The notes below the pieces were generated by a model. It ran no database searches. It was not told where the DNA came from and was given only the letters and a program-made list of their open reading frames with translations. A DNA stretch of 41,321 bases from a virus (lineage: Duplodnaviria; Caudoviricetes): IMG/VR virus record IMGVR_UViG_3300009149_000092, positions 1 to 41,321 of that record, one strand, 5' to 3'. This document shows positions 4,032-40,590 of this stretch, piece by piece (within the stretch, counting starts at the first letter, position 1; the number at the start of each line of letters is the position of its first letter). The position numbers were made by a program, and so were the translations under genes.

Positions 4032-4691
4032 ATGTATCGAACAATATTAGTTGGTAATGGCAAATATCGCAAGACTATTCATAGATGTATGAAGGAGACC
4101 ACTGCGTATATTAACTACAATAGGATTAGAGAGGAAAACGAATCAGTTGTCTTCCCCAAGAGGTTCGTGAACGATAAAGTAATCAAACCTGTCAAATATC
4201 AAATCTTCCTAGTCAAGGACATCGAAGATGGCGACAGAAATAGATTCATTAGAGACGACATTGGGAGGCTTCATGAGGAAACCCCCATCTTCGACCTATG
4301 GACTGTTAAAGAGTCTTGTTCGTACTCTGTTGAGGAAACCTTCTGGATATATGGTCACCCATCAAAAAAGAATAGGAAAACCTTCAACGATGTACTGGAT
4401 TTGGTCTTCTTGGATTCTGCCAATGCGGATAGTAGTAGACAAGCGATTGTCGTACACAATAAACTGGTCGTTCAGAATGAGGACCGTTTCGATATGATTA
4501 TCTGTAAGAATAAGAAAGATTGCCAACGCCTACACCACAAACTACGTGACTATGGTAAGGACAATAAAATAAAAGGCGTTCTATTTATGGGGACATGCGG
4601 TCCAGCAAATATCTCAATGATGTATGACATTATAGTAGAACGTACTAGTTGGGATATTAAAAAGGTTAGGAGAACCTCAACAAGACCTTAA
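4032..4691 (+). CDS. hypothetical phage protein; C-terminus duplicated at 5201-5263
   Basis: 219-aa ORF ending KKVRRTSTRP. Confidence 0.8.
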   Translation: MYRTILVGNGKYRKTIHRCMKETTAYINYNRIREENESVVFPKRFVNDKVIKPVKYQIFLVKDIEDGDRNRFIRDDIGRLHEETPIFDLWTVKESCSYSVEETFWIYGHPSKKNRKTFNDVLDLVFLDSANADSSRQAIVVHNKLVVQNEDRFDMIICKNKKDCQRLHHKLRDYGKDNKIKGVLFMGTCGPANISMMYDIIVERTSWDIKKVRRTSTRP

Positions 4692-4769
4692 TTTTGACTC
4701 TATTAAAAAATGTTATTTTTATAACACTTTTATGATTTTCTAGATATTTATTATTAAAGAATTAATATT

Positions 4770-4940
4770 ATGGGAAGAAAGAAGATTAAGAATAAAAAGG
4801 TAAGGTTTTCTATTACTATGAATAGTGAACTCAGTAAGATAGTAAAGGACTTACGACCAAATATGTCTAAATATCTTGAGTGGTTGGTATATCGAGATTT
4901 ATATAATCATAACAAGTTAGATGATGACTTCATATTATGA
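4770..4940 (+). CDS. small ribbon-helix-helix-like DNA-binding protein (56 aa)
   Basis: MGRKKIKNKKVRFSITMNSELSKIVKDLRPNMSKYLEWLVYRDL...; ATGA overlap with the next ORF; TATTTAT at 4745. Confidence 0.7.
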   Translation: MGRKKIKNKKVRFSITMNSELSKIVKDLRPNMSKYLEWLVYRDLYNHNKLDDDFIL

Positions 4941-5179
4941 TTATCAAGGGTAGAGTTTGTAATAAATGTGATACGTTTAAGGGGTTCTCATATTTTAGTA
5001 AGAATAAATATGGGAAGTATGGATATAAGAGTATCTGTAAAATATGTCAAAAGTTACCACCAAAGAAAGTAGCCACACTAAATGAAAACGTTAAAAGGTG
5101 TAACTGGTGTGACGAAATTAAGAATAAAGACGAATTTAGTAAAGTTAATAGAGACATTAAAAAAGACCTCATACTTTAA
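4937..5179 (+). pseudogene. truncated HNH-family endonuclease (N-terminal Zn-ribbon repeats only)
   Basis: CNKC...FSKNK...CKIC and CNWC...EFSK repeats as at the N-termini of the 10651 and 30733 HNH proteins; catalytic domain absent. Confidence 0.65.
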
Positions 5180-5200
5180 AGTTATCTCTAATGTCCGTTT

Positions 5201-5263
5201 ATCATCCACGATAACACTGAGTGGCCTTATAAGAAGATTAGACGCACTTCAACTAGGCCATAG
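5201..5263 (+). pseudogene. orphan duplicate C-terminus of gene 4032..4691
   Basis: IIHDNTEWPYKKIRRTSTRP* vs IIVERTSWDIKKVRRTSTRP*. Confidence 0.9.
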
Positions 5264-5355
5264 CCCTAAGGCCAATGTATACCTTGACCCACTTGTTCGT
5301 TAAATACTTTATAACTAGAGCGTCCCACTCTAAAACATTTTTACACTCTTCCGAC

Positions 5356-5652
5356 TTAATCATTTACTAATTCTTTTAACTTCTCAATCACGTTCTTCTT
5401 CAAGAACAATGGGTAATAATGCCAATCAGTGGAATTTATAATCAGGTCAAAATCTATATTCTGACCAGTTCCTATACACTTCATAAATACAAATAAGACT
5501 TCAGAAGGTGAATCGGGGGAAGACGTGATAGTAAAATAAATGGTACCAATTTCGACAAACTCTGCACTGTCAATGGAATTAAGAATTCCATTATCTAGGT
5601 AATAATACCTATCCAATAACGTCCTTGGGTCTTCGACTGTCTGATTATTCAT
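5356..5652 (-). CDS. hypothetical protein
   Basis: 98-aa ORF overlapping the upstream gene, operon-like. Confidence 0.65.
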   Translation of the reverse strand: MNNQTVEDPRTLLDRYYYLDNGILNSIDSAEFVEIGTIYFTITSSPDSPSEVLFVFMKCIGTGQNIDFDLIINSTDWHYYPLFLKKNVIEKLKELVND

Positions 5653-5941
5653 CCTTATTCACAAATTCATCAGCAACGTCTTCTCCAAGTTGGAAGTTCT
5701 TCTTGATGTCCTCGATGATTTTTTCGAGCTTGTCCATATCCTCATACGTGTGCATAACTGGATTGATACATTCGATTCGTTCATTATCATCCGTAGGGAT
5801 GAAGAAAGCTATCATATTATCACTTTTCTCTGCAATGATTTGATTTATAAATTCGGTGTAAGGTAGAAATACATCTGCGTCAGCCATAAGTTCTCTATCC
5901 AAATAGAAAACCAGTACTGTTGGTGTTGTTTTTGGTTCCAT
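5645..5941 (-). CDS. hypothetical protein
   Basis: 98-aa ORF, translationally coupled. Confidence 0.7.
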   Translation of the reverse strand: MEPKTTPTVLVFYLDRELMADADVFLPYTEFINQIIAEKSDNMIAFFIPTDDNERIECINPVMHTYEDMDKLEKIIEDIKKNFQLGEDVADEFVNKDE

Positions 5942-6198
5942 TATATATACTGTTTGTCAAATTCTTCGAATGCTACTTCTTCAATAACATCCTCTAAGTT
6001 ATAATTACCGTTCTGGTCGAAATTCTCTCCCAATAGTCGGTCTACTAATTCATTTTTTGAGTCATCTCCATAAATCATATCAACTGATATCTTTACGTCC
6101 TCATCCATTAGATAGACCAAGTACTCGTTCATCACCTTTGATTCGTGGAACGTACTTACAAGTCTATCACTATTCTTCACTATTATTTTCATCGTCAT
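5941..6198 (-). CDS. hypothetical protein (start re-called at about 6198)
   Basis: The longer ORF start lies inside a terminator hairpin; MTMKIIV is more plausible. Confidence 0.6.
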   Translation of the reverse strand: MTMKIIVKNSDRLVSTFHESKVMNEYLVYLMDEDVKISVDMIYGDDSKNELVDRLLGENFDQNGNYNLEDVIEEVAFEEFDKQYI

Positions 6199-6254
6199 TT
6201 TTGATTTATAGTTTAAGTTTAAACAAAAAAAATAACATAGTAAAGTGGAAACGC

Positions 6255-6290
6255 AAAAAAGGTGAAGAATCTTTCGAAACTTCACCTTTT
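6255..6290. terminator. intrinsic terminator, possibly bidirectional
   Basis: AAAAAAGGTGAAG-loop-CTTCACCTTTT. Confidence 0.7.
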
Positions 6291-6333
6291 AAGGGTACGT
6301 TAACCCGTACCAAGCGTCTGTCAGTCGCTAAAC

Positions 6334-6453
6334 TTACACTGTGACTACATCGTACCTTTCGGACCCGATGATGTCATACATCATTGACTCTGGAGTCATG
6401 TTCTTCCCAGCCAACAAAGCCTTAAGCAATGCTGGAGAAAATCCACTCACCAG
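6334..6453 (-). pseudogene. orphan duplicate C-terminus of the DUF2828/vWA gene
   Basis: LVSGFSPALLKALLAGKNMTPESMMYDIIGSERYDVVTV* vs LVSGFNVNLLTNLLAGKDLSPYSMMMSTLNDDRYASITV*. Confidence 0.92.
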
Positions 6454-6558
6454 TATTCATAGTACAAAGATACGCATTTATTCGTAATTTGTCAAGGTTA
6501 TACTACTTTTATACTACTTTTATAGTTTATCAACCTATTTATAATAAAGACGAATAGT

Positions 6559-6714
6559 ATGAGTAAGAAATCACTACCAATAGAAGAAACTAAAATAAAG
6601 TTAAGTATTACCTTATCTAGAGAACTAAATAACAAGTTAAGGTGCTTATCTAAGAATAAATCTAAATTAATAGAATCAATATTATCTAAACATATCGATG
6701 AATGGAAACATTAA
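6559..6714 (+). CDS. small ribbon-helix-helix-like DNA-binding protein (51 aa)
   Basis: MSKKSLPIEETKIKLSITLSRELNNKLRCLSKNKSKLIESILSKHIDEWKH; overlaps the GIY-YIG start; TATTTAT at 6536. Confidence 0.7.
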   Translation: MSKKSLPIEETKIKLSITLSRELNNKLRCLSKNKSKLIESILSKHIDEWKH

Positions 6715-7394
6715 CATATATTTATACGTTATCAGACCCTAGAACCGACATATTTTACTATGTCGGTAAAACTATAACACCCGAAAATAGATTAAAGGGA
6801 CATATTAAGGACGCTAAAACCAAAAGGCGTAACAATTTATCGTGTAATTGGGTTAAATCACTGTTAAAGGAAGGGGTAGAACCAAAAATGGACATTATAG
6901 ACGAAGTATACGGAGAATGGGAGTGGTTGGAGAGGTATTGGATATCTCAGTTTAAAACGTGGGGATTCGAACTTAAAAATATGACCAATGGTGGTGATTC
7001 TAACCCAATGTCTAATCCATCATCAAGAAAGAAAGTATCTGATAAGTTAAAAGGGGTATCATTATCAAAGGAACATAAAGATAATGTATCGAAAGCTAAA
7101 ACAGGAGTTCCTATTCATTCTGAAAAACAAAAAGCCAACTATAGTAAAATGAATGGCGGCATTAATAATCCCATGTTCGGTAAAAAACATAGTAATACCA
7201 CCCTATTAAAAATGAAAATACCCATATTACAGTACACTCTAGACGATGATTTAGTCAGGGAGTGGGATTCTGCGGCTGATGTTGAGCGTGAATGTGGTCT
7301 GATAGCCAAATGTATTAATAGGTGCGCTAAAGGAGATAGAGCAACTGCATATGGTTATAAATGGGTATACAAAAATGGGAAAGGTAGAGATTAA
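6702..7394 (+). CDS. GIY-YIG homing endonuclease with NUMOD-type DNA-binding repeats
   Basis: YIYTLSDP...YYVGKT...RLKGH, ERYWI, LKNMTNGGD, NPMFGKKHS, TAYGYKW. Confidence 0.9.
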   Translation: METLTYIYTLSDPRTDIFYYVGKTITPENRLKGHIKDAKTKRRNNLSCNWVKSLLKEGVEPKMDIIDEVYGEWEWLERYWISQFKTWGFELKNMTNGGDSNPMSNPSSRKKVSDKLKGVSLSKEHKDNVSKAKTGVPIHSEKQKANYSKMNGGINNPMFGKKHSNTTLLKMKIPILQYTLDDDLVREWDSAADVERECGLIAKCINRCAKGDRATAYGYKWVYKNGKGRD

Positions 7395-7407
7395 TCTACC
7401 TACCCAA

Positions 7408-8511
7408 TTATACGGTTATAGACGCATATCTGTCATCGTTAAGCGTACTCATCATCATACTATATGGAGACAAATCCTTACCAGCTAATAGATTTGTTAG
7501 TAAATTAACGTTGAATCCACTTACCAGTGCAGTCCCTTGCTTGTCGAATTCTACTGGACTGTCGCCATTTCTAGCGTTCAAATTCCAGTAAACCAACTTT
7601 GGCACTTCGTACCCAGCATCTTCATACATGGTTTCAATCATCTTTTGAGCCGTTGGGTTCCACTCCGAAGAGGTTTCACGCCAATAGGTAGTTCTTACAG
7701 CTTGATTGAACTGCATATCACTAAGAATCGTAACTATGGTAGGCATTTGGTCTTGTGAGACTTTATTAGCCTTAGCCTTAGCTAGAATAAGCTTGAATAC
7801 CGCCTCAACGTTGGTACTCATACCCCATTCTGCACGTCTTAGTTGGTTACACCTCTCACTCAATGACCCCTTAAGGTATTGAAGCTCTGGTGTACTGGAG
7901 AAAGTGACGAATGCATCCTTGAATGCACCTTCATTTCTCTCGGAGATGTATAGTCCTAAACTTACAGCTACGTCAAGGCACGAAACCGAACCTTTACCGC
8001 TTGCTGGACAAGTCATTGAACCAGATACGTCTACAACTGGCAATAACCTTTCGGCATTACCTTCCAAATAGTTAGGAAGCGCATTCCATTGAGCGTTTGC
8101 ACCTTGGGCGTTGCCTTGGTTCAACGAATTAACAACGTTGTATGGGTATACAGCGCCAGCGTTGATTTTGGCTTCGCCCTTTTCTACAGAATTCAAGTAC
8201 TCAACGAACCTTTCAGTATCGCGCTTACCGAATGTCTTCATGTAGTCGGACATTGCTTTAGAAGGAATCTTCCCGTACTCGATAGATGACCAGTCTCCTG
8301 AACACATGGCATTTTCAACCACGTTAGTCAGTTCAACCAACATCTTACGGTACTCCTTTGGAGACAAACTTAATTTCTCTCTTAATACTTTTACCACTCT
8401 CTTCTTGTCCGCGTTTTTCACGTTTGGACGTGGCATCCACTTAGCGACCAAAGATGACGACATCATCTCAGATTCTAAAAATCTTTTTAATTTTAACTTA
8501 TTTTCATTCAT
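7408..8511 (-). CDS. DUF2828-type (TROVE-like + vWA) protein, C-terminal fragment
   Basis: AKWMPR, MIDAS DVSGSM, ILSDMQF, YWNL, VSGF. Confidence 0.85.
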   Translation of the reverse strand: MNENKLKLKRFLESEMMSSSLVAKWMPRPNVKNADKKRVVKVLREKLSLSPKEYRKMLVELTNVVENAMCSGDWSSIEYGKIPSKAMSDYMKTFGKRDTERFVEYLNSVEKGEAKINAGAVYPYNVVNSLNQGNAQGANAQWNALPNYLEGNAERLLPVVDVSGSMTCPASGKGSVSCLDVAVSLGLYISERNEGAFKDAFVTFSSTPELQYLKGSLSERCNQLRRAEWGMSTNVEAVFKLILAKAKANKVSQDQMPTIVTILSDMQFNQAVRTTYWRETSSEWNPTAQKMIETMYEDAGYEVPKLVYWNLNARNGDSPVEFDKQGTALVSGFNVNLLTNLLAGKDLSPYSMMMSTLNDDRYASITV

Positions 8512-8571
8512 AATTCACTTTTCATTAAATTTCTTATATGTATCTCTAGGCATCCACTTAAAATTAATATC

Positions 8572-9375
8572 ATGAATACTACTCCTTATACTTACAAACT
8601 TGTTTTTAAACCTACTGGTCAATATTATTATGGTGTTAGATATGCTAACGGTTGTCATCCGAATGACTTGTGGGACAAATACTTCACATCCTCCCGTCAC
8701 GTCCACAACCTAATTAAAGAATATGGATTATCTTCATTTGAATATGGGGCGACTAAAACCTTTACTAATAAAAAGGACGCTATTAATTATGAGCATCAAG
8801 TATTATTACGAGTTAAAGCTGATGTAAATGGTAAATTTATTAATAAGACCATTTCAAAAGCAATACCGTCAATGGATGGTTTAATTATCATTAACCATAA
8901 AGAATCGAAATTACAAACATTTCACGACCCATCATTACCAATACCAGAGGGGTGGGTTAGAGGTCTAAAACAGTCCCATATAGACACCATGTCTAACTCT
9001 AGATGTGGTTTACCAGCCCATAATAAGGGTAAAAAAGGTAAATCTACTGGCGTATGCTCTGATGAAAGAAAATACAATATTAAAAAAGCTAGATTACTAA
9101 CCAAAAAAATTGACTGTGTATTTTGTGGTAGGCAATCTGACCCAGGAAACCATAAAAGATTTCACGGTGAAAATTGCAAACACAATCCTAATATTAACCA
9201 ACAAGTTATCAAAGAACGTAGTGAAATAGCTAAAAAATCATACATAAAGCAGATTAATAATGGCAATTTCAGTATTGTCAAACCACCAATTGGTGATTTT
9301 AAGTGTCCCAATTGCGATAAAAAAATCAACAATAAGGGTGCGATGACTAATCACATTAAATCTTGCCAAAACTAA
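8572..9375 (+). CDS. Seg-like GIY-YIG homing endonuclease, antisense, separating the two DUF2828 halves
   Basis: PYTYKL...YYYGVR...YFTSS N-terminal motif; AHNKG repeat; C-terminal Cys/His fingers. Confidence 0.8.
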   Translation: MNTTPYTYKLVFKPTGQYYYGVRYANGCHPNDLWDKYFTSSRHVHNLIKEYGLSSFEYGATKTFTNKKDAINYEHQVLLRVKADVNGKFINKTISKAIPSMDGLIIINHKESKLQTFHDPSLPIPEGWVRGLKQSHIDTMSNSRCGLPAHNKGKKGKSTGVCSDERKYNIKKARLLTKKIDCVFCGRQSDPGNHKRFHGENCKHNPNINQQVIKERSEIAKKSYIKQINNGNFSIVKPPIGDFKCPNCDKKINNKGAMTNHIKSCQN

Positions 9376-9850
9376 CTAAATAGTCTCGACATTCTTCATC
9401 GCTTAAGTCATCAATTTTATTTAAAATGGATTTAAACTTTTTTCCCTTGTGTAACGCTGAAGCAATCATTTCTGCTGCTGCCGCTTCCAATGGAGTATCG
9501 AACAACACGATAGTGTCATCCCATCGTCCGAATTCTGGAATCAAGTGAAGGTTCTTAGCTAGAACGGCTGTTCTATTTATTGCCAAGTATTTGAAGATAT
9601 CTCTGGATACTTTTCTTTCACCAGCACCACCACGCACGTCTCTAACCCAGAAAAGAATTTTCATGGCTGTTAGCGCATCCTCATCGAATGCCTTAACAAA
9701 TAGGTTAATAACTTCTTGTGTTGGTTGTGTTCTCATTGCACCTACTCGTGAGAATAGGTCTACACACATGTTAAGGGTCGTGGAATTTGTTGTCATTCCG
9801 TTTTCCGTTAACTTATCTTCTGTTCTTAATGCGTTGATTAATGTACTCAT
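9356..9850 (-). CDS. DUF2828-type protein, N-terminal fragment
   Basis: TENG...CVDLF...FWVRDVRGGAGER...IPEFGRWDD; TATCTTTG promoter element at 9889-9896. Confidence 0.85.
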   Translation of the reverse strand: MSTLINALRTEDKLTENGMTTNSTTLNMCVDLFSRVGAMRTQPTQEVINLFVKAFDEDALTAMKILFWVRDVRGGAGERKVSRDIFKYLAINRTAVLAKNLHLIPEFGRWDDTIVLFDTPLEAAAAEMIASALHKGKKFKSILNKIDDLSDEECRDYLVSFGKI

Positions 9851-9969
9851 ACTATAAAATTTAAATGTCTGTTATCACTTAAGGACTACAAAGATACTTT
9901 AATTTTTACGTTCTGTCAAGTAAAATACGAAAATAATTTGTAACTAGCTGATAATCAGGTGAATAAATT

Positions 9970-10206
9970 TTATTCTTCTTGGGTTACGGTAACGTTTATA
10001 CCACCTATTTCGATTTCTATCACCTCTTGGTGTTCGAAATCAGTTCCATTCGGATTGTGACGATAATATAGTTCCTCGTCTAGTTTGGTATGATTCAAAG
10101 ATGGGATTACGTATTGAATGGTTAGTCCGTCCTTAATTATCCCCTTGTTATTTACCATCTCAGAGACGGTTTGTATGATGTCTTCGTATGTTAGTGTATA
10201 GCTCAT
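9970..10206 (-). CDS. hypothetical protein
   Basis: 78-aa ORF in an operon. Confidence 0.7.
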   Translation of the reverse strand: MSYTLTYEDIIQTVSEMVNNKGIIKDGLTIQYVIPSLNHTKLDEELYYRHNPNGTDFEHQEVIEIEIGGINVTVTQEE

Positions 10207-10208
10207 GA

Positions 10209-10529
10209 TTAAAACTTGGCGAATAGACTAGCAAAGAACTTTTTAACTGGGTTCTCTTTAGGTTTCTCAACTCTTTTAACTCCAACACCTTTACTGTCCT
10301 TGATTACTTTACCTAGGTCACTTCTAATGTCTTTAATGAAGCGTTCCTTTTTTGTCTCGGTGTTCATTACGATAGCTTTGATATCATTCTTAACCGTATC
10401 AACGGTTTCTAGTTCGTTCTCTAACATATTAATATCATCCTCGTTTGTGAATGTCTTAATATAATTGTGGACCAGATTTGGTATTTCCTCTTGTCCTACT
10501 TCTATTACTTTTCCGAGTTCTTTTGACAT
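10209..10529 (-). CDS. hypothetical protein
   Basis: 106-aa ORF; its start overlaps the end of the NUDIX relic. Confidence 0.7.
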   Translation of the reverse strand: MSKELGKVIEVGQEEIPNLVHNYIKTFTNEDDINMLENELETVDTVKNDIKAIVMNTETKKERFIKDIRSDLGKVIKDSKGVGVKRVEKPKENPVKKFFASLFAKF

Positions 10530-10651
10530 AATTTTTCTATTTTATCTTTGGTTTTAGGGAATAAAGGTGACGGTAAATCATCTTGTGAGTACCAGCCGTA
10601 GTTCTTATTCTCCTCATCCAATTTAGGGATAAATTCTGACTTTGTAAAGCC
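10505..10651 (-). pseudogene. orphan duplicate C-terminus of the NUDIX gene
   Basis: GFTKSEFIPKLDEENKNYGWYSQDDLPSPLFPKTKDKIEKL vs GRSKNEFTPTLDEENEDYGWFSIGELPSPLYPKTNEKIMKL. Confidence 0.93.
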
Positions 10652-11451
10652 TAATTACCACTTTTAACAAACCTATTATTATAACCGCATAGTGGTTGAA
10701 GATTGGTGAAATGATTTAACTTGATTAATTCACTCTCATTTAATGCCGAACTGGTAGGTATAATATGGTCAACATCCCACGTCTTATTCGATTCATATAT
10801 ACCGTCTTTAGGGTTACCATAATTATCCCAATTCATCCATGGCTCCCATAATGATTCTAGATGAGTTCTAAACTCTTCAAATGAACAACCTAGTATATCT
10901 ACAGTCTTATTTTTCTTGGTGAATCCAGCAGATATTATCCCATATCGTATTAGTCCACTTATATTGCCCCGAATCTTAAATAGTGAATCGGATTTCCTTC
11001 TATTGTTTTGATATTTATTTCTACGCAGCTTGACCGCTTCTTTATTATTTTGTCGATATATTTTAATATTCTCCTTAAACATATCTTTATTATTCTCATA
11101 ATACTCCCTACTCTTTTCCTTAATTATAGCTTTATTCTCTTTATTATAGTCAACCCTCCATTTTTTAATTCTATCCTTATTCTTAAGATTATACTGAGCC
11201 AGTTTCTCTTTATTGTTCTCACTATAACGCTTACTAATTTCTTTAATTTTATTCTTATTATTTTTACGATATGTCTTATTACGCAGTAAGATGGTAGACT
11301 TGTTAGCCTCGTATCTTTTTCTATTAATCTCCTTTAAACAACCTTTACAATAATTGGTCAGACCAGTCTTACGAGCCTTATCTTTATTAAATTCACACAC
11401 CAATTTAATATTATTACATTTACTACAATTTTTTTCTAATATCAGCATCAT
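10651..11451 (-). CDS. HNH homing endonuclease (WDNYG...WDVDHIIP family)
   Basis: N-terminal CxxC ribbon, K/E/Y-rich helical repeats, ILGCSF...WDVDHIIP...LNHFTNLQPLC. Confidence 0.88.
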   Translation of the reverse strand: MMLILEKNCSKCNNIKLVCEFNKDKARKTGLTNYCKGCLKEINRKRYEANKSTILLRNKTYRKNNKNKIKEISKRYSENNKEKLAQYNLKNKDRIKKWRVDYNKENKAIIKEKSREYYENNKDMFKENIKIYRQNNKEAVKLRRNKYQNNRRKSDSLFKIRGNISGLIRYGIISAGFTKKNKTVDILGCSFEEFRTHLESLWEPWMNWDNYGNPKDGIYESNKTWDVDHIIPTSSALNESELIKLNHFTNLQPLCGYNNRFVKSGN

Positions 11452-11885
11452 TCTTTAACGTTAAGTAACTTCATTATTTTTTCGTTGGTCTTTGGATATA
11501 ATGGGGAAGGTAGCTCTCCAATAGAAAACCACCCATAGTCTTCATTTTCTTCATCCAACGTGGGAGTGAATTCATTTTTACTCCTACCTTCGTAATAATG
11601 AAATGTGGTACCATCAGAATTTCTTTCTGTAGTGACGAATTCTAACCTTAATTTTGCATCAACATCGATGCTGATTTCTTCCATTATCTCTCGTTTGAGT
11701 GTTTCGAGTTTATCCTCACCTTCTTCCATTCCACCACTAAGAATTGACCACTCACCTTTATGTGGTGCCCACCCTCTAAGTAATAGAAGGACCTTATTGG
11801 TGTCCTCAGCTACGATGCAAACACCGACAGCTTTCTTATGGTCACCTTCCAGCAGTCTGTGTCTTAAATTTTCTCTGATATTCAT
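11448..11885 (-). CDS. NUDIX hydrolase
   Basis: Nudix box GGMEEGEDKLETLKREIMEEISI. Confidence 0.9.
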   Translation of the reverse strand: MNIRENLRHRLLEGDHKKAVGVCIVAEDTNKVLLLLRGWAPHKGEWSILSGGMEEGEDKLETLKREIMEEISIDVDAKLRLEFVTTERNSDGTTFHYYEGRSKNEFTPTLDEENEDYGWFSIGELPSPLYPKTNEKIMKLLNVKE

Positions 11886-31955: not shown

Positions 31956-32823
31956 AATATTCCTCTTTATTAGTTTTAAACCAATATAATAAATCACTAT
32001 ATTTATTTTCATTTTTCATGAAATCTAAACGATAGTCTATTTTTAGAGAACTAAAATATTCTAACGCTGCAACACATTTCAATTTAAAAATTCGCTCGTC
32101 TTTTATGTAACCTTTAACCTCTAATATACTTTCAACACCATTATCAATTAAAAAATCTGGTAAATATCTTCTCCTTATATTACCATCATAATAAGCTATA
32201 ACGTGTCGATGTTTCTTAGTCCAAAAGTTTACTTTATCATCTCCATCTAATTCAACCATTTTTAATTCCTCCCACGAAGAATGATAATACTCATTATCAT
32301 CAGTTTTAGTTGATTTGTACCACCCACGCTTACAATTATTATATGCGCCATAACTAGGTTCACACATTAACCGTTTTATACTAGCTTTAGAAATTCTATC
32401 CCTAAAAAACTCGTCTTGCCAATCAAAACTGCCATCCGATAACCTATGACGATTTAAAAATTCCAAATGCTTTTCCAACCGTTCTGGGTTTTCCCAACTA
32501 TTTTTAACTTTAACACTTATTTCTCTTCTCTTCTCTAAACTATGGGTACCCCAACTATTTTTTCTACCATAATTACCATTATTTTCACCTAACTGATAGG
32601 TTTTTTGCCAATTATTTTGACATGTAGTCGAACAGAACTTTTTAACCTTATTAGATTTACTATCCTCATAGATATCAAATATTTTTGTACAACCACTATA
32701 CTCACATTCTTTATTAACCTTATTTAGACTATTAGCCTTACCGCTGCACTTTTTACTACAATACTTCTGCCCACTCTTATAAGTTTTAAACTCACCATTA
32801 CAATTTTCACATATCTTTATCAT
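31939..32823 (-). CDS. Zn-finger + TnsA-like PD-(D/E)XK endonuclease separating the sbcD halves
   Basis: CENC/YCSKKC/FCSTTC; YHSSWEE...RRYLPDFLI...LEVKG. Confidence 0.8.
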   Translation of the reverse strand: MIKICENCNGEFKTYKSGQKYCSKKCSGKANSLNKVNKECEYSGCTKIFDIYEDSKSNKVKKFCSTTCQNNWQKTYQLGENNGNYGRKNSWGTHSLEKRREISVKVKNSWENPERLEKHLEFLNRHRLSDGSFDWQDEFFRDRISKASIKRLMCEPSYGAYNNCKRGWYKSTKTDDNEYYHSSWEELKMVELDGDDKVNFWTKKHRHVIAYYDGNIRRRYLPDFLIDNGVESILEVKGYIKDERIFKLKCVAALEYFSSLKIDYRLDFMKNENKYSDLLYWFKTNKEEYYEKED

Positions 32824-32887: not shown

Positions 32888-33586
32888 TTAATTATCAATT
32901 TCCCACCCCATTTTAAGGTATTTATCTAATTCATCTTCGTAAATTTCTTTCTTATCCGTTAGATAAAAACAACTCCGCTTATGAATATCACCCATCATAA
33001 CGATGTCACAGCCCTCAAAATGTGAAAGTGGTGTACCAGTATCAAACTCATATCCGATGTCCGTAGAAGCGCCTAGAATAGATGCGTGGTACAGACCGAT
33101 ATATGTGAAATCATCATTTTCGTTTGCAGTACCGACAAGTGAAGCCTTAAAAGCCTCAATGTCTGGTCGCTCGTTATGGTCAAAAATGGAGTAGTTGCAC
33201 CAAACGATATTATCATCTACATAACACTCTCTACCCTTGTAATAAGATATGTTAAGTGAGTTAATTAGTGTCACAATTGGTGTAATACTGTCTACCCGTT
33301 CTTTATTATTCTCCAATAAGTCATGATTTTCAGCAACCAGTACAACGGGCGCTATAGCCGCCAATTCGGTTAGGAAAGTGGAGGTCATCATTAGTAACTC
33401 ATTTGAAATGGTAATCTTCTGATGAAGAAGGTCACCCGCTATCACAATTCTCACCTCATGGTGGTCGTAATCTTTAGTAAGTTCCCGACATTTGTCGTAA
33501 AGCTCCTCAAACACAGCTTCGTAGTCACCATGCATTCGATATGTCCTGATATGAATATCGGCCATGTGAATTACGGATTTTATCAT
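32888..33586 (-). CDS. sbcD: SbcD/Mre11 metallophosphoesterase N-terminal fragment
   Basis: HMADIH, IAGDLLH, (A)ENHD in place of GNHD, LYH, MGDIHKR; start re-called after TATCTTTG at 33604-33611. Confidence 0.9.
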   Translation of the reverse strand: MIKSVIHMADIHIRTYRMHGDYEAVFEELYDKCRELTKDYDHHEVRIVIAGDLLHQKITISNELLMMTSTFLTELAAIAPVVLVAENHDLLENNKERVDSITPIVTLINSLNISYYKGRECYVDDNIVWCNYSIFDHNERPDIEAFKASLVGTANENDDFTYIGLYHASILGASTDIGYEFDTGTPLSHFEGCDIVMMGDIHKRSCFYLTDKKEIYEDELDKYLKMGWEIDN

Positions 33587-33656: not shown

Positions 33657-34424
33657 ATGAATTATGTAACTCAAATACTTTCAACTATGACACCAGAAGA
33701 GAAAAAAGAAAGAAAAAGACTATATCAGATAGAATATAGAAAAAAAAATAAAGAAGCTCTGCGAGAAAAAAAGCGAGAATATGATAAAAAATATAACGAG
33801 AAAAATAGAGATAAGAAGTTGGCGCAGTCTAAAGATTATAGGAAAAGGAATCCTGATACTATTAAAAAATGGCGACTAAATAATGTTGATAGAATAAAGA
33901 AGTGTTCTCACGAATATTACGATAAACATTCTGAACATATTAAAGAAAAGAGTAAAGAGTGGAGGTTGGCTAACGTTGAGTCGGTCAAATCGTATAATAA
34001 AAAGTGGAACAACGATAATCCCAACTATAAAAAGAATTATTATCTTGAAAATAAAGAACAATTATTAACAAATCAGAAAGTTAGGCTACTCAATGACCCT
34101 GTATTCAAATTATCTAGAAATATCAGAAAACGGATTTGGGAGGGGTTTACTGAAAATGGATATTCTAAGGAATCTAGAACCTACAAAATATTAGGATGCA
34201 CATTCGAACACCTCAAAGAACATATTGAGTCTCAATGGGAGGATTGGATGGATTGGGATAATTATGGTGAGTATAACGGAGAATTAAATTATGGTTGGGA
34301 TGTTGACCATATTATACCTATCAGTTCTGTGTTGACTGAAGAAGATGTAATAAGTTTAAATCATTATACTAATCTACAACCCCTATGTAGTAAGACCAAT
34401 AGAGATATTAAAAAGGCTAACTAA
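33657..34424 (+). CDS. HNH homing endonuclease
   Basis: ILGCTF...WDNYG...WDVDHIIP...NHYTNLQPLC. Confidence 0.88.
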   Translation: MNYVTQILSTMTPEEKKERKRLYQIEYRKKNKEALREKKREYDKKYNEKNRDKKLAQSKDYRKRNPDTIKKWRLNNVDRIKKCSHEYYDKHSEHIKEKSKEWRLANVESVKSYNKKWNNDNPNYKKNYYLENKEQLLTNQKVRLLNDPVFKLSRNIRKRIWEGFTENGYSKESRTYKILGCTFEHLKEHIESQWEDWMDWDNYGEYNGELNYGWDVDHIIPISSVLTEEDVISLNHYTNLQPLCSKTNRDIKKAN

Positions 34425-34429: not shown

Positions 34430-36202
34430 TTATCCCATCTGTACCTTATATTTATGTAGGGTTAAGAGTTGCTTTGCTTCGTGCTTCATATACATTATGG
34501 GAATCTTACTCATTGTCTCAGTTATCTTATCCCAGTAACCAATCCAGATATGTCTACATTTTCTACCAGTCTCTAACTCATACATGTAAGCGTAAATGCT
34601 TAGTTGGAGAGTATAAATAGACCATTGGCAGTTTTGCATGTGCTCTACGGGCTTTAACAACGTCTCATTCCCGTATGGGTTGTGGAAGTGAAATGCTTTG
34701 TTGGTGTTATGTGTTACTGATAATGTATGACCATATAGGAATGTGGATGTAGGACTATCTACCTCAATACATCTGGTTGATACTGAATCTACTTTATTAA
34801 CCGATATAACATTCTTAAAGTTACTATGGTTACGTTTGGGGTATTCTAACCCCACTTGATTTCTACATAAAAACGGGTTTACCGAATCTGTAGTAAAACA
34901 AACATCATAAACATCAATATCTTTACCATTAAATTTTTTAATGAATGGTATTACGGTAGTTTTAATACCTAAACTTGATACTATTTGTACCGTTGCGTCT
35001 ACTTGCCATTGTCTGGTGGTTGACATCACGAATCTCTTTCTAGACTTATTGTAATGACCATCAGCGTCCATAAGACCCCTCAATAAATCCAACCTCTGCT
35101 CATATGATGATAACATGTAAACGTCTGGTATATGTTTATTACCTAATAAATCTAATTCGGATAGGACATGTCTTAGATTGAATACTGTTCTAGTTTGAGC
35201 CTTACCAGCACCCCCTTGACTTACGTCATCACCTATTTCGTAACCCCTACGTTTAATTTCTAACCACACCTCGGAATCCATGTTGGTTATCTTATTATCG
35301 GCACTATGTCCATCCCCCAACCACACACCTAAAACATATGGGTCTATAGGTAAACTAGAAGTTAAATTCTCCAACCGTCTAGTTATTTTAACTTTAGGTA
35401 GTTTATGTGACCACCTTTTACCAGACTTATTCATCTCATCAATATATTCTGACAGTTCCTTCGTTGTCATAATAACGTCTTTAAAGTTTTTATCTCGATA
35501 AAAAGATATTAGCCACCTGTGGTCTTCATCTGCCACTATGATTTCATTGTTATCAAATTTAACTTCATAACATGGAACATTTTTAATATTAGACGTATGT
35601 AGTACTCTACTTAAATTACCAGCCATATCATAAACCAAATCCGATGTGGTTATAGTTCCCATAGTTTTCCAACCAGAATCGGTTAATATTGGCGTATTAA
35701 TATCTAACCCCTTCCAGTCACCAACATCGAAGAATACATCGTCAATATCAATAATAAGGTCACCCATACCAGCCAGTTCGTAATACTCAGAGAACATAAT
35801 TCTCTCTGGCCACATTGTAACCCCTTCATCTACGTTCAGACTATCATACCCATCAATAGCTTTCTGCTGCAATTCAACCTCTGGAAACCATAATTTACCT
35901 TTTAGAAGGTACTCTTCAATGGCCTCGTGAACATAAGTACCGTACTCATTGGCCGTATCATTCAACTCTTGCCAGTAATCTAATATCTGTTCTTTTGTCC
36001 ACCCAATATACGTCTCGTTCTTACTTCCGTTAGTGTCGCTCTGCTTTGAAATGGCAGTTGCAACACCATCAGCATCGAAGTGAGGCTCTATATTGGCCAA
36101 CGTAGTTGTTACCGACCTATATCTCTTCCCACTTTCTCTGTGGATGTAGACGTGCTCAATCGGCTCTAGATAAACTTTTGATTCGTGTTTTCCTATATTC
36201 AT
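34430..36202 (-). CDS. PD-(D/E)XK exonuclease (Cas4/RecB-like phage type) containing an intein
   Basis: SVTT, GTYVHEAIE, E...AGMGDL, DWK|intein|TNK, YTLQLSIYA. Confidence 0.88.
   Translation of the reverse strand: MNIGKHESKVYLEPIEHVYIHRESGKRYRSVTTTLANIEPHFDADGVATAISKQSDTNGSKNETYIGWTKEQILDYWQELNDTANEYGTYVHEAIEEYLLKGKLWFPEVELQQKAIDGYDSLNVDEGVTMWPERIMFSEYYELAGMGDLIIDIDDVFFDVGDWKGLDINTPILTDSGWKTMGTITTSDLVYDMAGNLSRVLHTSNIKNVPCYEVKFDNNEIIVADEDHRWLISFYRDKNFKDVIMTTKELSEYIDEMNKSGKRWSHKLPKVKITRRLENLTSSLPIDPYVLGVWLGDGHSADNKITNMDSEVWLEIKRRGYEIGDDVSQGGAGKAQTRTVFNLRHVLSELDLLGNKHIPDVYMLSSYEQRLDLLRGLMDADGHYNKSRKRFVMSTTRQWQVDATVQIVSSLGIKTTVIPFIKKFNGKDIDVYDVCFTTDSVNPFLCRNQVGLEYPKRNHSNFKNVISVNKVDSVSTRCIEVDSPTSTFLYGHTLSVTHNTNKAFHFHNPYGNETLLKPVEHMQNCQWSIYTLQLSIYAYMYELETGRKCRHIWIGYWDKITETMSKIPIMYMKHEAKQLLTLHKYKVQMG
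34706..35710 (-). mobile_element. 335-aa intein with LAGLIDADG endonuclease and class-3 WCT signature
   Basis: Starts GLDINTPI; block B ADEDHRW; LGVWLGDG and LRGLMDADG; block F TRCIEVD; ends VTHN before Thr. Confidence 0.92.
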
Positions 36203-36256: not shown

Positions 36257-36481
36257 ATGAAAGATTCAATAAAGAAACAATTAGGTGAAGGCTTAGAGCA
36301 GTACACAACCGACATTAAGGAAAACGAATTCGAAGTTGACCAGGATTTGAAGTATGAAGAGGTCAGAGTGGATGTGGTTAATGTTATGACAAAATTAGTC
36401 AATAAACACACTGAGACTTTCGGTGATAGAAATTCTTCCTTTGGGGCTGTGTTATCGGTGATAGAAAAGTTATACCTATGA
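36257..36481 (+). CDS. hypothetical protein (start re-called at 36257)
   Basis: ATG follows TATTTAT at 36243; ATGA overlap with the next gene. Confidence 0.7.
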   Translation: MKDSIKKQLGEGLEQYTTDIKENEFEVDQDLKYEEVRVDVVNVMTKLVNKHTETFGDRNSSFGAVLSVIEKLYL

Positions 36482-37143
36482 AAAATAATATTAGAATACG
36501 ATTACGTGAAGGTCTTAATGAGTATAGCGAATATGATGACGACCTAGATAATTTTGACGACCTAGATAATTTTGACGACCTAGATATGGAAGACGAGCCA
36601 GCGGCTCCTGTCAAAAAAATGAGTGGAGTGGTTAAAGCTTTTCATGGTTCTCCAAGTAAGATTAAAAGCTTCAGTGATGAGTTTGTCGGTGGTGAGGAGG
36701 CCAATGACCAAGAGGGTCCTGGAATCTACTTCACCACTGATTATAATGATGCTACTGGTTACGGAAAAGGTGGGTATGTTTACCAAGTATCTTTGAATAT
36801 TAAGAATTTAGTTTCTGACCAACCATCAGGTAGTCTGGATTATTTGGTTGGCCCAGTGACTAAACTAATCAAAATGAACCCTAATTGGAAGAGTGTTGCC
36901 AAAGGTTACGATGAGGGACTAGGTGAAATGATAGCCCAATATTTACATACATCACAAAGCGAAAAAGAAGTATTCGTAGCCGTATGTAATAGTATATATA
37001 CTAACGATTCGGTATCATTCGTTAGGAATATGGTTAAGTTGGGGTATGATGGTCTTCATCTGCCAATGAAAGGTGACGGTGCTAACATCGTAATTTACAA
37101 TCCGAAACTAATACGTGTTGACGGTGTGAAGCAAATTAAATAG
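36478..37143 (+). CDS. ADP-ribosyltransferase-fold-like protein (polyvalent-protein type)
   Basis: AFHGS...GPGIYFT...A..Y...VY.V.L...LGYDG...IVIYNP pattern; recalled similarity, not searched. Confidence 0.6.
   Translation: MKNNIRIRLREGLNEYSEYDDDLDNFDDLDNFDDLDMEDEPAAPVKKMSGVVKAFHGSPSKIKSFSDEFVGGEEANDQEGPGIYFTTDYNDATGYGKGGYVYQVSLNIKNLVSDQPSGSLDYLVGPVTKLIKMNPNWKSVAKGYDEGLGEMIAQYLHTSQSEKEVFVAVCNSIYTNDSVSFVRNMVKLGYDGLHLPMKGDGANIVIYNPKLIRVDGVKQIK
36538..36585 (+). repeat. 18-bp coding tandem repeat (DDLDNF x2.7)
   Basis: GACGACCTAGATAATTTT twice plus GACGACCTAGAT. Confidence 0.9.
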
Positions 37144-38110: not shown

Positions 38111-38165
38111 AATGCGAAGATACACATTATGTCTGACAATTTCAAGCCGAACACAAAAGAGGAGG

Positions 38166-38225
38166 TTAATTCCACCTACCACTTTGCCGTAGAGCACCTA
38201 CCACGCATGTATACGCATCGGTCAT
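38166..38225 (-). pseudogene. orphan duplicate C-terminus of the RuvC-like gene
   Basis: MTDAYTCVVGALRQSGRWN* vs MTDSYCAVIGYMNQVGRWPK*. Confidence 0.85.
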
Positions 38226-38278
38226 GAATATTGTCGCATCATAGGCGTCCTTTCTCAGGTTTAGACATATTTATTAAT

Positions 38279-39073
38279 ATGAGGGATAAAATAGTTAGAC
38301 AATTAGGAAAGACACCAGTAGTAGGTATTTATATGGTTACCAATATAGTGAATTCAAAAATATATATCGGACAATCAATAGATATTGATAGGAGGTGGAA
38401 CCAACATAGGTATGGTAAAGGTAGTATAATATTACGAAATGCCATTAACAAGTATGGTATAGAAAATTTTAAATTTGAGGTGGTTGAAGAGGTGGAGGTT
38501 GAGGGTTTATCTAATGGAGAGACTAAAGAACTATTAACATCGGTAGAACAAAAATGGTTAGATGATGAAAAACCATACCTAAAAGAGAATGGATATAATC
38601 AACAATCTGTCGCCAAACCAAACATACCTATTAAAAGACCAGAAGGTTATGGTAAACTAATCAGCAAAATAAAGATAGATAATAACCATTGCGGTAAAGG
38701 AGTTATCCAATATAACCTAGATGGTGGACTAATAAAAGAGTGGAAGTCTGCTGCCCAGATAGAGCGTGTATTAGGGTATCATGCTGAAAACATATCTGGA
38801 TGTTGTCTTAAAAAACAGAAATCCTCAAATGGGTTTATTTGGAGATTTAAAGGCGAACCGTTAGATAATACTCAATTAAATGAGTTAATAGTGAGAAAAA
38901 AACCAATACATAAACAGATTAAACAAATCGATTCTAATGGTGTGGTGGTTAACGTTTGGTATTCATTAAAACAGTTGGTTGATACTAGCGAATTCGATAA
39001 TAGACCCGTAAAAGCGTGTTGTAACAGTAAACGAGACGAATATAAAGGTTATAGGTGGGAGTGGGCTACTTAG
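38279..39073 (+). CDS. GIY-YIG homing endonuclease with two NUMOD1-like domains
   Basis: GIYMVTN...IYIGQS...RRWNQH, GYN; start re-called after TATTTAT at 38268. Confidence 0.92.
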   Translation: MRDKIVRQLGKTPVVGIYMVTNIVNSKIYIGQSIDIDRRWNQHRYGKGSIILRNAINKYGIENFKFEVVEEVEVEGLSNGETKELLTSVEQKWLDDEKPYLKENGYNQQSVAKPNIPIKRPEGYGKLISKIKIDNNHCGKGVIQYNLDGGLIKEWKSAAQIERVLGYHAENISGCCLKKQKSSNGFIWRFKGEPLDNTQLNELIVRKKPIHKQIKQIDSNGVVVNVWYSLKQLVDTSEFDNRPVKACCNSKRDEYKGYRWEWAT

Positions 39074-39722
39074 GCCATCTGCCGACTTGGTTCATATAAC
39101 CTATGACGGCACAGTAACTATCCGTCATATCGTAGTTTTCTTTCTTCAGTATCATTTTTGGCGTATATAACCACTTGATTAGTGGTTCTACATCTGCTAC
39201 CTTATTCCAGATAACATCCTTCTTATCAATATCATACGGAAGTCCTCCGAATAATACAGCCTTCTTCTTTTCTATCTGCTTGTCAGTAAATGCAACACCG
39301 TCTTTCTTATGTGTTCTCTTAGCCATTAGCTCTGGGAATCCGAAGGCTCTAGCATCATATGATGAAATGAATTGTGGTGCTACTCCTAACGTTTCGTATA
39401 CTGACCTACAAATCATTCCATTGAATCGTAGTAGTGTCGCCACCGTATACACGTTATTAGAGCGCAATAGTGGTTCCTCGATAATAACATCTGTTATCCC
39501 GATATCCGCATACTTGTTTAAGAATTCAGTTTCGAATATCTTTGCCTTATCACACAGCTCCTGAATTTTATCCTTTGGCGCTGGCTTGATTTTAGGACTA
39601 ACATGGTGTAACAGTTTTAACTGACCCTTATCACCTAAGTCCTCGAATAGCGCTATTCCAATGGTTTTCGTGCTAACGTCCAATCCGAGCAAATAATTTT
39701 TCTTATCTTTATTTTTTTTCAT
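39066..39722 (-). CDS. ruvC: RuvC-like Holliday junction resolvase
   Basis: LLGLDVSTKTIG, VIIEEP, LLRFNG, YDMTDSY catalytic acidic residues. Confidence 0.82.
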   Translation of the reverse strand: MKKNKDKKNYLLGLDVSTKTIGIALFEDLGDKGQLKLLHHVSPKIKPAPKDKIQELCDKAKIFETEFLNKYADIGITDVIIEEPLLRSNNVYTVATLLRFNGMICRSVYETLGVAPQFISSYDARAFGFPELMAKRTHKKDGVAFTDKQIEKKKAVLFGGLPYDIDKKDVIWNKVADVEPLIKWLYTPKMILKKENYDMTDSYCAVIGYMNQVGRWPK

Positions 39723-40506
39723 AATCACATTTTTTTTTCCATTTAAACCCAGCGGCAGTTTTTTGTTTACCGTTCGTACAGTTTGATATACCACTTTTAA
39801 TGTTTACACCTTCCTGTGCCACTTTTATAGATTCCCATTCTTTAATAAATTTACCATCTTTTGTTAGTTGTATAACTGGTACAGCAAAAGTATCCGATAA
39901 CAGTTTTTTGGTCTTTTCACTATGGTGTTTACCATACATAGGGTGGGCTTCCCCACTGTAAACTCCAATATGTGCCTCACTCATTTTCCCCCTTATTATC
40001 ATCGCAACCTTCTCACCATAGATATCTTCATAAGTTTTACCCTTCTTTTCGGACACCCTACCCTTACATGATTTACTCAAATTATCTCTATGCTCTTGAG
40101 ACCTAACTTCACCGTTATTCAACCAAGGAATAGCTTTACCATTTTTTGTTTCAGACATTCTTCGTTTAGATTCTTCAGTATGTTTCCTACCTTTGGTTGA
40201 GGGTGGTTGGTCACCGCCATCTGTACTGTTAGTTAATCTAACACCTAATCCCCTATAATACGCAATATAATGCTGTTCCCAATACTGCCATTCTTCTTTT
40301 AAAACTTCATCAATAATTATAAGCTCTGGTCTAGATTCAGAATCAACCATCTTTCTAATCCACCTATCTTTATAACTATCATGTTTAAATCTCTCTGAAA
40401 TATGTTTCCGTAACCTAACTTTAGGGTCTTTACTTTTACCCACATACCTTAATTCTTTTGTGGTTGGTTCCACCAACCCATAAATATAAACTATCTCTTT
40501 ATCCAT
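39709..40506 (-). CDS. GIY-YIG homing endonuclease (paralog of 6702..7394)
   Basis: YIYGLVEP...YVGKS...RLRKH, EQHYI, LTNSTDGGD, HPMYGKHHS, TAAGFKW. Confidence 0.9.
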   Translation of the reverse strand: MDKEIVYIYGLVEPTTKELRYVGKSKDPKVRLRKHISERFKHDSYKDRWIRKMVDSESRPELIIIDEVLKEEWQYWEQHYIAYYRGLGVRLTNSTDGGDQPPSTKGRKHTEESKRRMSETKNGKAIPWLNNGEVRSQEHRDNLSKSCKGRVSEKKGKTYEDIYGEKVAMIIRGKMSEAHIGVYSGEAHPMYGKHHSEKTKKLLSDTFAVPVIQLTKDGKFIKEWESIKVAQEGVNIKSGISNCTNGKQKTAAGFKWKKKCDYEKK

Positions 40507-40530
40507 AATATTTTCAATATAAATATATCG

Positions 40531-40590
40531 TCAGCGTGAAAAAGTCTTTGTAGAGACATCTAGCCCCAATACCTTTTTACTTTGTTCCAT
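40531..40590 (-). pseudogene. orphan duplicate N-terminus of the RuvC-like gene
   Basis: MEQSKKVLGLDVSTKT(FSR*) vs MKKNKDKKNYLLGLDVSTKTIG; preceded by a TTGAC...TATATTGG promoter. Confidence 0.92.

Follow-up and report, generated by a model that had tools for sequence, protein, structure and literature searches.

How can a free-standing endonuclease gene lodge inside the coding sequence of a conserved gene and yet leave that gene whole? The question is raised by the complete virus record IMGVR_UViG_3300009149_000092, whose 41,321 bases are the window of this analysis. Eight nuclease genes in it, two of them decayed, each lie between the working terminus of a phage gene (the host gene) and a stranded second copy of that terminus (the scar). 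The eight cases concern seven host genes, as the RuvC-like gene is counted twice, once for each end; the others are a NUDIX, an amidase, a TROVE-like and a DUF1360 gene and two genes without known family, hyp219 and hyp179. The insertion points lie 14-48 codons inside the host end, and the duplicated ends comprise 42-147 nucleotides (nt). We consider it quite probable that these elements are homing cassettes composed of a free-standing nuclease and a divergent copy of a host-gene end, the nuclease being predicted to cut the empty allele near that end.

Duplicated gene ends beside nuclease genes

A preliminary description of this DNA had listed eight second copies of gene ends, and all eight are present. 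Scar and working end share 13/20, 20/39, 26/41, 8/13, 10/16, 9/14, 10/18 and 9/15 residues; over the aligned parts of 13-41 codons (39-123 nt) this amounts to 51-65% of the residues and 49-74% of the bases. As a control for chance, 88 termini of the listed non-nuclease genes of the window were each compared with their own 2.2-kb flank and with 150 flanks drawn at random from the window. Seven termini outscored every one of these null flanks; all seven are among the listed cases and lie at nuclease genes. The N-terminus of hyp179, with its 14 codons, alone reached p=0.04 against the null flanks, and this eighth case is secured by a relative: 41 of the 42 bases of its scar are those of the intact start in the nuclease-free G001. 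Two termini without a nuclease, the N-terminus of an ADP-ribosyltransferase (ART) gene (0.033) and the C-terminus of the sigma factor gene (0.04), gave similarly weak values, and neither beat all nulls. All eight duplicated termini are real. The host genes had been described as intact; the TROVE-like gene is not, being split by a further nuclease gene.

Three nuclease folds had also been claimed, of which GIY-YIG and HNH-type are supported. Four nucleases are GIY-YIG by Pfam, and two HNH-type nucleases match PHROG 1035 (E 9e-16 and 6e-17), with Pfam HNH only at E 0.41 and 0.016. The relic at locus 4 carries a motif that we take to be Vsr-like; it matches nucleases in PHROG 559/9084, reaches no Pfam cut-off, and has 83% amino acid (aa) identity to a 363-aa full-length nuclease open reading frame (ORF) at the same site in the relative L156. 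Small ribbon-helix-helix (RHH)-like ORFs directly precede the nuclease genes of three cassettes (4770-4940, 6559-6714 and 30584-30727; only one with E <0.001) and are possible autoregulators of the nucleases. In total the window holds twelve free-standing nuclease genes or relics and one intein-borne LAGLIDADG nuclease. Eight of the twelve have a terminal copy, three split a gene and one does neither.

The genes of the window are in synteny with those of uncultured viral contigs that reach 380 kb. Its gene content includes ClpP-like, DnaJ-like, TROVE-like (DUF2828), NUDIX, amidase, sigma factor, SbcCD-like, primase and RuvC-like genes, where the names ClpP, DnaJ and SbcCD represent our own reading of the sequences. 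Neither hyp219 nor RuvC had a match among 50,697 phage records, and the matches of SbcC and the amidase to phage records are all below 60% identity (21-35% for the best-covering ones), so there is no close cultured relative at these genes. A 9-base promoter-like motif occurs six times in the window, against 0.5 expected copies; it presumably resembles the Bacteroidota -7 promoter box, which is a hint to the host organism.

For comparison 232 related loci (2.47 Mb, labelled L) were used; the window's own entry, L154, was excluded before all counts. Their proteins were de-duplicated by sequence, and the near-duplicates L113/L125, L162/L163 and L181/L211 stay in. The relative G001 shares the gene order of the window, with ~70-85% nucleotide identity, and has none of the nucleases of loci 1, 3, 4, 5, 6 and 7.

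The related loci contain 62 distinct nuclease-like ORFs, 57 of them evaluable. The facing terminus of the neighbour is copied on the far side at 23 of these 57, compared with 15 of 565 control genes, and the top-scoring control matches look like neighbouring paralogues; L107, L130 and L103 have likely true scars that fell below the score threshold and are left out of the 23. Runs of neighbouring genes that share 20-25 N-terminal residues and have unrelated bodies (L164:11112-13064, L178:679-1963, L214, L224) are the main source of control matches. Most intervening ORFs belong to GIY-YIG, HNH/endonuclease VII-like or other nuclease families (PHROG). The C-terminal targets include RuvC, primase, SbcC, amidase, NUDIX, TROVE-like, endolysin-like and metallophosphoesterase genes and an 84-aa gene, the N-terminal ones in the related loci ClpP, RuvC and a 400-aa gene. 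In L055 (1414-3375) a phage lysozyme gene is flanked on both sides by a GIY-YIG-family nuclease and a scar, like the RuvC gene of the window. The 84-aa gene is nuclease-free in the window (21089-21343, minus strand) and has the scar-type end; an HNH cassette replaces this end in G001 and L040, and in the cassettes at L041:365-1338 and L040:930-1897 the nuclease ORF reads on into the scar. An unbiased survey of 4950 termini gave 122 matches, of which 30 were left after filters; among the matches listed, L084, L095, L140 and L143 (tandem paralogues) as well as L097 were set aside by eye. Only 4 of the 15 nuclease-like ORFs in the 150 kb of G001 that were examined have a terminal copy, compared with 8 of 12 in the window, which is therefore unusually dense.

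Table 1. Features of the eight loci in the window. Ends are called old where comparison with relatives supports it.
Locus	Feature	Positions	Strand	Remarks
1	Host gene hyp219, 219 aa	4032-4691	+	no Pfam or PHROG family; working end from ~4611-4629 to 4691
1	Small ORF before relic	4770-4940	+	weakly RHH-like (CcdA, E 0.12); similar to 6559-6714
1	HNH-type nuclease relic	4937-5179	+	zinc-finger start and last residues kept, catalytic part deleted
1	Scar, old C-terminus	5201-5263	+	20 codons and stop
2	Scar, old TROVE-like C-terminus	6334-6453	-	39 codons and stop
2	Promoter-like motif in cassette	6465-6473	-	points into scar and downstream genes
2	RHH-like ORF	6559-6714	+	antisense to host gene
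2	GIY-YIG/NUMOD3 nuclease	6702-7394	+	antisense to host gene
2	Host, C-terminal half of TROVE-like DUF2828/DUF7788 gene	7408-8511	-	working end 7408-7527
3	Scar, old NUDIX C-terminus	10505-10651	-	48 codons and stop; overlaps start of next gene
3	HNH-type nuclease	10651-11451	-	phrog_1035, E 9e-16; start overlaps NUDIX stop
3	Host, NUDIX hydrolase	11448-11885	-	working end 11448-11588
4	Host, DUF1360 protein	11941-12276	+	working end 12223-12276
4	Nuclease relic	12271-12576	-	catalytic C-terminal part only; also present in L157
4	Scar	12585-12638	+	17 codons and stop
5	Scar	14246-14296	-	~16 codons; in-frame end of nuclease ORF
5	GIY-YIG/NUMOD3 nuclease	14246-14962	-	stop-start coupled to amidase
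5	Host, N-acetylmuramoyl-L-alanine amidase	14962-15903	-	working end 14962-15012
6	Host gene hyp179, 179 aa	29975-30514	-	no PHROG family; working start 30473-30514
6	Promoter-like motif	30519-30527	-	just before substitute start
6	RHH ORF	30584-30727	+	antisense to host gene
6	HNH-type nuclease	30733-31386	+	antisense to host gene
6	72-codon ORF between nuclease and scar	31383-31601	-	no family match; not at this site in G001
6	Scar, old N-terminus	31684-31728	-	14 codons and stop
7	Scar, second RuvC C-terminus	38166-38225	-	19 codons and stop
7	GIY-YIG nuclease	38280-39073	+	antisense to RuvC; not in G001
7, 8	Host, RuvC-like resolvase	39066-39722	-	phrog_159, E 3e-6; working end 39066-39128, working start 39663-39722
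8	GIY-YIG/NUMOD3 nuclease	39709-40506	-	overlaps substitute RuvC start; homologue and scar also in G001
8	Scar, second RuvC N-terminus	40531-40590	-	homology stops at ~40543

Older and newer ends

The scar had been taken for the ancestral end throughout. Comparison with the closest nuclease-free relatives, which carry the scar type, supports this for five of the eight loci, namely hyp219, TROVE-like, NUDIX, DUF1360 and hyp179. In hyp219 of G001, six of seven diagnostic residues are of the scar type and none of the working-end type (48/63 versus 37/63 nt). The TROVE-like gene of L156, the closest nuclease-free relative there, agrees with the scar at 15 of 19 diagnostic residues and with the working end at one, and its end matches them at 101/120 and 74/120 nt, respectively. 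G001 has the TROVE cassette of the window, and its scar is identical to the working end of L156 at 117/120 nt with gene bodies 85% identical, which fits a scar that is a recently displaced functional end. The NUDIX scar shares 123, 120 and 108 of its 147 nt with L155, L156 and G001, the working end 93, 89 and 85 of 141; the diagnostic residues of G001 are divided 11 to 3 of 19 in favour of the scar. For DUF1360 this division is 6 to 0 of 9, and the scar-type end is found in G001, L159, L164 and L160. In hyp179 G001 is scar-type at 5/5 diagnostic residues, and its match to the working start is only 27/42 nt. Counted over nuclease-free homologues, those nearer to the scar are 22/34 for hyp219, 30/35 for TROVE-like, 27/49 for NUDIX, 75/91 for DUF1360 and 32/32 for hyp179; these homologues are kin, so such counts are not independent, and they include some carriers whose nuclease lies at a contig end or is reduced to a stub (L157, L160). 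The expression wiring attributed to two scars was confirmed: the scar of NUDIX runs 25 nt past the start of the next gene, as does the intact NUDIX gene of G001, and the scar of hyp179 shares its stop-start coupling with the intact hyp179 gene of that relative.

At the amidase locus the indications of polarity are mixed; its scar type is the intact gene end in the nuclease-free L159 and L164. For the RuvC scars as old ends it is the position that speaks, through adjoining motifs of the intact gene, while the sequence gives no polarity. The C-terminal scar is followed by the primase-upstream motif that in G001 follows the intact RuvC stop, and the N-terminal scar is preceded by a motif resembling that before the intact start in the nuclease-free G002. 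Both RuvC scars begin or stop at acidic motifs, which we take to be catalytic.

The preliminary description had named nuclease-free relatives with the current end as evidence that would refute it. For part of the loci they do exist, namely hyp219 (L156), DUF1360 (L158) and the amidase (G001, L158, L160). At two genes such copies of the new end adjoin nuclease stubs or leftover scars, and these genomes look derived from carriers; L158, at DUF1360, and L160 are visibly ex-carriers. The amidase locus appears in all its stages among nine close genomes: the cassette is intact in the window and L162, truncated in L163 and reduced to a stub of 14 codons plus scar in L160; G001 and L158 are nuclease-free with a new front on a scar-type tail, and L159 and L164 are empty with the scar-type end. 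Deleted forms of this nuclease are found in L163, L156 and L160. At DUF1360, L158 has the new end and the scar but no nuclease, and L162 and L163 have a new front and an old tail. In hyp219 of L156, 60 nt are identical to the working end of the window (4611-4670) in a gene that is otherwise 75% identical, followed by a scar-type tail. The decay series thus runs from intact through partly deleted and stub plus scar to no trace, and we infer that the chimeras of new front and old tail arose by excision through recombination between the two copies.

The end types are scattered over a ten-taxon tree of three neighbouring genes built with the swapped ends removed (support 66-100). Identities of cassette and flanks were computed at three loci. 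Between the window and G001 the TROVE cassette, i. e. substitute end plus nuclease, is 86-88% identical in nucleotides, compared with 79% for the gene body; for the amidase nuclease of window and L162 the value is 85%, compared with 75% for the body, 63% for the scar and 65% for the next gene. The cassettes look mobile, since the end types scatter over the gene-body tree and, at two of the three loci, carriers are more alike in the cassette than in the flanks.

The new terminus had been called recoded, as the rescuing gene end of home-and-rescue drives reportedly is. This did not hold. Between substitute ends and scars 35-49% of the residues differ, and relatives have the former as functional alleles, so these ends are divergent natural alleles. 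General synonymous recoding was rejected as well: shared residues use other codons at 62 of 105 positions (59%) compared with 42% genome-wide to G001, which donor divergence can explain. The one end that looks synonymously recoded is the RuvC start motif, in which all nine shared residues use other codons in scar and working start. A difference at all nine codons occurs in 0 of 171 pairs among 19 relatives (one site, noted post hoc), and each of the two start copies of the window also differs at all nine codons from one relative.

A possible course of events is the following. In a co-infection the nuclease would cut the empty allele near the scar boundary. Repair would rely on two flanking regions of pairing, the gene body and the scar of the donor, so that substitute end and nuclease are copied in, and the substitute end, being a different allele, would be spared from cutting. 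The host gene would stay whole without splicing, the old end would be left as a scar, and later recombination between the two copies could excise the nuclease and leave a mosaic end. The cassettes also appear to repair expression, to judge from the stop-start coupling at NUDIX and amidase, the promoter takeover at RuvC and the promoter-like motifs. The C-terminal loci come in two forms. In one the nuclease gene is coupled to the host stop that precedes it (twice directly, once reading into the scar); in the other it is antisense and may use its own promoter. At the RuvC N-terminus the nuclease would take over the old promoter. The motifs at 6465 and 30519 face displaced host genes; the latter could be a new promoter that the cassette brings for hyp179, and G001 lacks such a motif here and has its hyp179 gene coupled to the preceding stop.

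Alternative explanations and other insertions

Several observations weigh against the homing cassette interpretation. At the amidase only 5 of 36 nuclease-free homologues are nearer to the scar and 21 nearer to the working end; for the RuvC C-terminus the numbers are 13 and 26 of 48, and for the N-terminus 3 and 43 of 49, in a comparison that includes residues past the junction. L156 has the working-type end of hyp219, with no nuclease or scar detected. The raised identity to G001 at the TROVE-like gene extends to the scar (86%), and the nuclease at the RuvC N-terminus shows no rise at all between window and G001 (71% versus 75-78% in the flanks). No scar was found at 34 of the 57 related nuclease genes and at 4 of the 12 in the window. 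Finally, L156 contains mirror loci (7434-8901 and 10537-11690) with homologous nucleases at DUF1360 (full length) and amidase (deleted), in which the working ends are of the scar type of the window and the scars of its working type; this takes an extra assumption. This arrangement would result if a variant with switched specificity had re-invaded a resistant allele, and exchange between the repeats after the nuclease had died could produce it as well. The DUF1360 scar of L156 resembles the chimeric empty allele of L162.

The homologue counts at the amidase and both RuvC ends, together with the raised identity of the TROVE scar, suit the view that at these three ends the working end is native and the scar a flank captured from a former host genome. 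We consider this unlikely. In L159 and L164, which have no nuclease, the intact amidase gene ends in the scar type; L160, with its stub and scar, is a former carrier; G001 and L158 combine the new front with a scar-type tail; and the amidase scar diverges from that of L162 as the flanks do, whereas the nuclease does not. At the five other loci the view fails.

Less probable still is that the nucleases are passengers and that ordinary recombination between divergent phages in a co-infection, with homology at one junction and an illegitimate joint at the other, duplicates gene ends beside any foreign gene. One-sided repair with microhomology junctions is documented in T4, according to a review (PMC2988022), and terminal duplicates without an intervening nuclease occur in L226, L009, L220, L202 and L107. 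Yet the copies are tied to nuclease genes, both in the related loci (23/57 versus 15/565) and among the top matches of the window (7/7), and the same targets recur with different nucleases, e. g. the RuvC C-end with HNH in L113 and GIY-YIG in L116.

Highly improbable is a long target-site duplication at insertion with later drift of the unused copy, even though short words are shared at the junctions and the two RuvC starts of G001 share a 17-nt repeat. As the preliminary description had held, the divergence of the copies does not fit; drift should also have made the unused copy the more divergent one, and it is the unused copy that is nearer to relatives (41/42, 123/147 and 101/120 nt) and has kept its frame; five loci contradict this explanation.

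That the inserts are introns or bypassed segments with the scar as an expressed first or last exon has a negligible probability: scars do keep open frames and C-terminal ones their stop codons, but the working end already completes the protein, no intron family is among the three weak Rfam matches in the window (E up to 1), and at NUDIX and amidase (loci 3 and 5) the nuclease ORFs fill the whole space, with no non-coding room for a group I or II ribozyme. Strain-mixing misassembly, a concern in a metagenome contig of depth ~6-10 where a related nuclease at depth 5 overlaps the DUF1360 relic, is just as remote. Single contigs of a second assembly, made from what may be the source run, span loci 1, 2, 3 and 5 with 1-2 differing letters each; locus 4 is partly bridged, with a break at 12245-12274, and L157 has the same end and nuclease. 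This read support covers positions 3500-16500 of the window, and G001, L162 and L157 have the same layouts.

Other insertions lie near the cassettes. The TROVE-like gene is split (9356-9850 and 7408-8511, minus strand) by an antisense SegE-like GIY-YIG gene (8572-9375, plus strand) and is intact in G001; its halves have gained a tail of ~30 residues and a new head, neither found in the intact homologues compared. The SbcD-like gene is likewise split by a nuclease-like gene (32888-33586, 31939-32823 and 31728-31955, all minus strand) with added terminal residues, is intact in G001 and G002, and is split near the same place by this or a Vsr-like nuclease in L103, L108, L128, L125, L130 and L138. 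The SbcC-like gene is broken into 29381-29971, 28289-29317, 27796-28302 and 25551-27794 (all minus strand), as in G001, and is unsplit in G002. The break reads as an atypically split intein with an N-part of ~30 and a C-part of 125 residues (Pfam intein E 7e-4, weak), whose halves flank a nuclease-like gene and a 170-aa ORF. An exonuclease-like gene (34430-36202, minus strand) contains a LAGLIDADG-bearing insert of ~330 codons, read as an intein, that is not in G001. For the HNH gene between the exonuclease-like and SbcD-like genes (33657-34424, plus strand) the flank search found no scar; in L103 an HNH gene at the same site has a weak C-terminal copy.

Elsewhere in the window, the ADP-ribosyltransferase gene (36478-37143, plus strand) belongs to the ART-PolyVal family (Pfam E 6.5e-10) and contains a short acidic repeat; in G001 its place is taken by an unrelated gene of 142 aa. 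The gene at 18069-19658 (minus strand) has a weak ArdC N-terminal anti-restriction domain (E 8.5e-4), and in G001 one 946-aa ORF spans the position of this gene and of the upstream 429-aa gene. A near-perfect hairpin at 1717-1774, just after the ClpP-like gene, is probably a terminator; it gives a weak match to a microRNA family of Rfam on both strands.

Known systems and meaning of the finding

The preliminary description had proposed a splicing-free mechanism of terminus replacement. The layout supports it, but the idea is already published, including for the WHO elements of Torulaspora and Lachancea yeasts, which had not been named there. For WHO elements a homing model has been proposed and allele-specific cleavage shown (PMC7282813; bioRxiv 10.64898/2026.08.13.744650); in the preprint they form a third category, described as rare, known from a single yeast family and considerably less frequent than introns and inteins. 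Their likeness to the window consists of a nuclease gene with an alternative host end and no splicing, a displaced old end as the second homology arm, resistance by allelic difference, decay to pseudogenes and an arms race between nuclease and target. In the window, too, the nucleases are flanked by a substitute host end and an old-end fragment, with polarity at five of eight loci, and in the ten-taxon tree the host end is discordant from the host body. The differences are that WHO proteins are intein-like LAGLIDADG/zinc-finger relatives of HO and not GIY-YIG, HNH-type or Vsr-like nucleases; that they target mainly FBA1, with ~400 bp of the 3' end only, and not 42-147 nt at both termini of many phage genes; and that they stack in tandem, whereas the window has one nuclease per terminus (clusters in relatives received no dedicated search).

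Mobile ORFs of fungal mitochondria form similar gene hybrids in atp6, atp9, cox2 and nad3 of Glomus, atp6 of Allomyces and atp9 of Rhizopus (PMC3630166), and C-terminal duplicates of cob and atp6 occur in Endoconidiophora (PMC6279837). Here a foreign C-terminus comes with a GIY-YIG or LAGLIDADG ORF, the native C-terminus is stranded downstream and nearer to relatives, and four genes can be affected in one genome. The same arrangement is found in the window at hyp219, TROVE-like, NUDIX and DUF1360. In contrast to the virus record, the fungal hybrids are mitochondrial and comprise C-termini only, with no HNH or Vsr type described in the available text; N-termini, antisense cassettes and supplied promoters are added by the window. 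In T4 and its intronless homing, free-standing GIY-YIG and HNH genes (seg, mob) also lie beside conserved genes of a large phage and cut allele-specifically with co-conversion, but the nuclease gene lies between genes and its cut site is hundreds to thousands of bases distant, unlike the insertion inside a coding end with a scar (PMC2988022); the words 'duplicat' and 'remnant' do not occur in that review. Genes fractured by free-standing endonucleases, in which the element supplies stop and start signals, resemble the three other insertions of the window, the split SbcD-like gene being of the same kind as a fractured SbcD-like locus with extra terminal residues described there, next to a nuclease enclosed by a split intein; the host is broken into two proteins and not restored by a substitute end (PMC2677866). 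Home-and-rescue drives target an essential gene and rescue it but are synthetic, CRISPR-based and made in Drosophila (PMC7968924). Insertion sequences are not indicated, as near-identical short direct repeats are missing at the ends.

To judge by their sequences, the elements of the window would work like WHO elements and fungal mobile ORFs and yet belong to neither, having other nucleases, other targets and a phage as their genome. New with respect to these systems are the density, the use of both termini, three nuclease classes, the clade-wide frequency, the visible life cycle and the mirror loci. No description of end-replacing nuclease cassettes in phages was found in the literature searched, which covered few subscription or older T4 papers and no supplements, so that a precedent may exist; the available parts of PMC10448857, PMC12724721 and PMC2988022 describe none.

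The same layout was found at 8 of 12 nuclease genes in the window and 23 of 57 in related phages, with three classes and both ends, so it represents a general strategy of homing endonucleases and not one peculiar to a family. It could explain why free-standing nucleases gather at the margins of conserved phage genes, and it implies horizontal movement of protein termini in such phages, separate from the gene bodies. The scars may predict the target of each nuclease with a precision of tens of bases, and retargeting of nucleases can be tested at the mirror loci. A bolder reading, which we put forward tentatively and with more doubt than confidence, is that terminus replacement is a main route of invasion for free-standing nucleases of three unrelated folds in this clade of phages, acting on both ends of many genes, in a cycle of spread, decay, excision that leaves a resistant mosaic end, and re-invasion by a homologous nuclease of switched specificity that brings the former end with it, as the flips at DUF1360 and amidase in L156 could reflect. 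If this is true, the termini of phage genes would toggle between allele classes in a natural gene-drive arms race.

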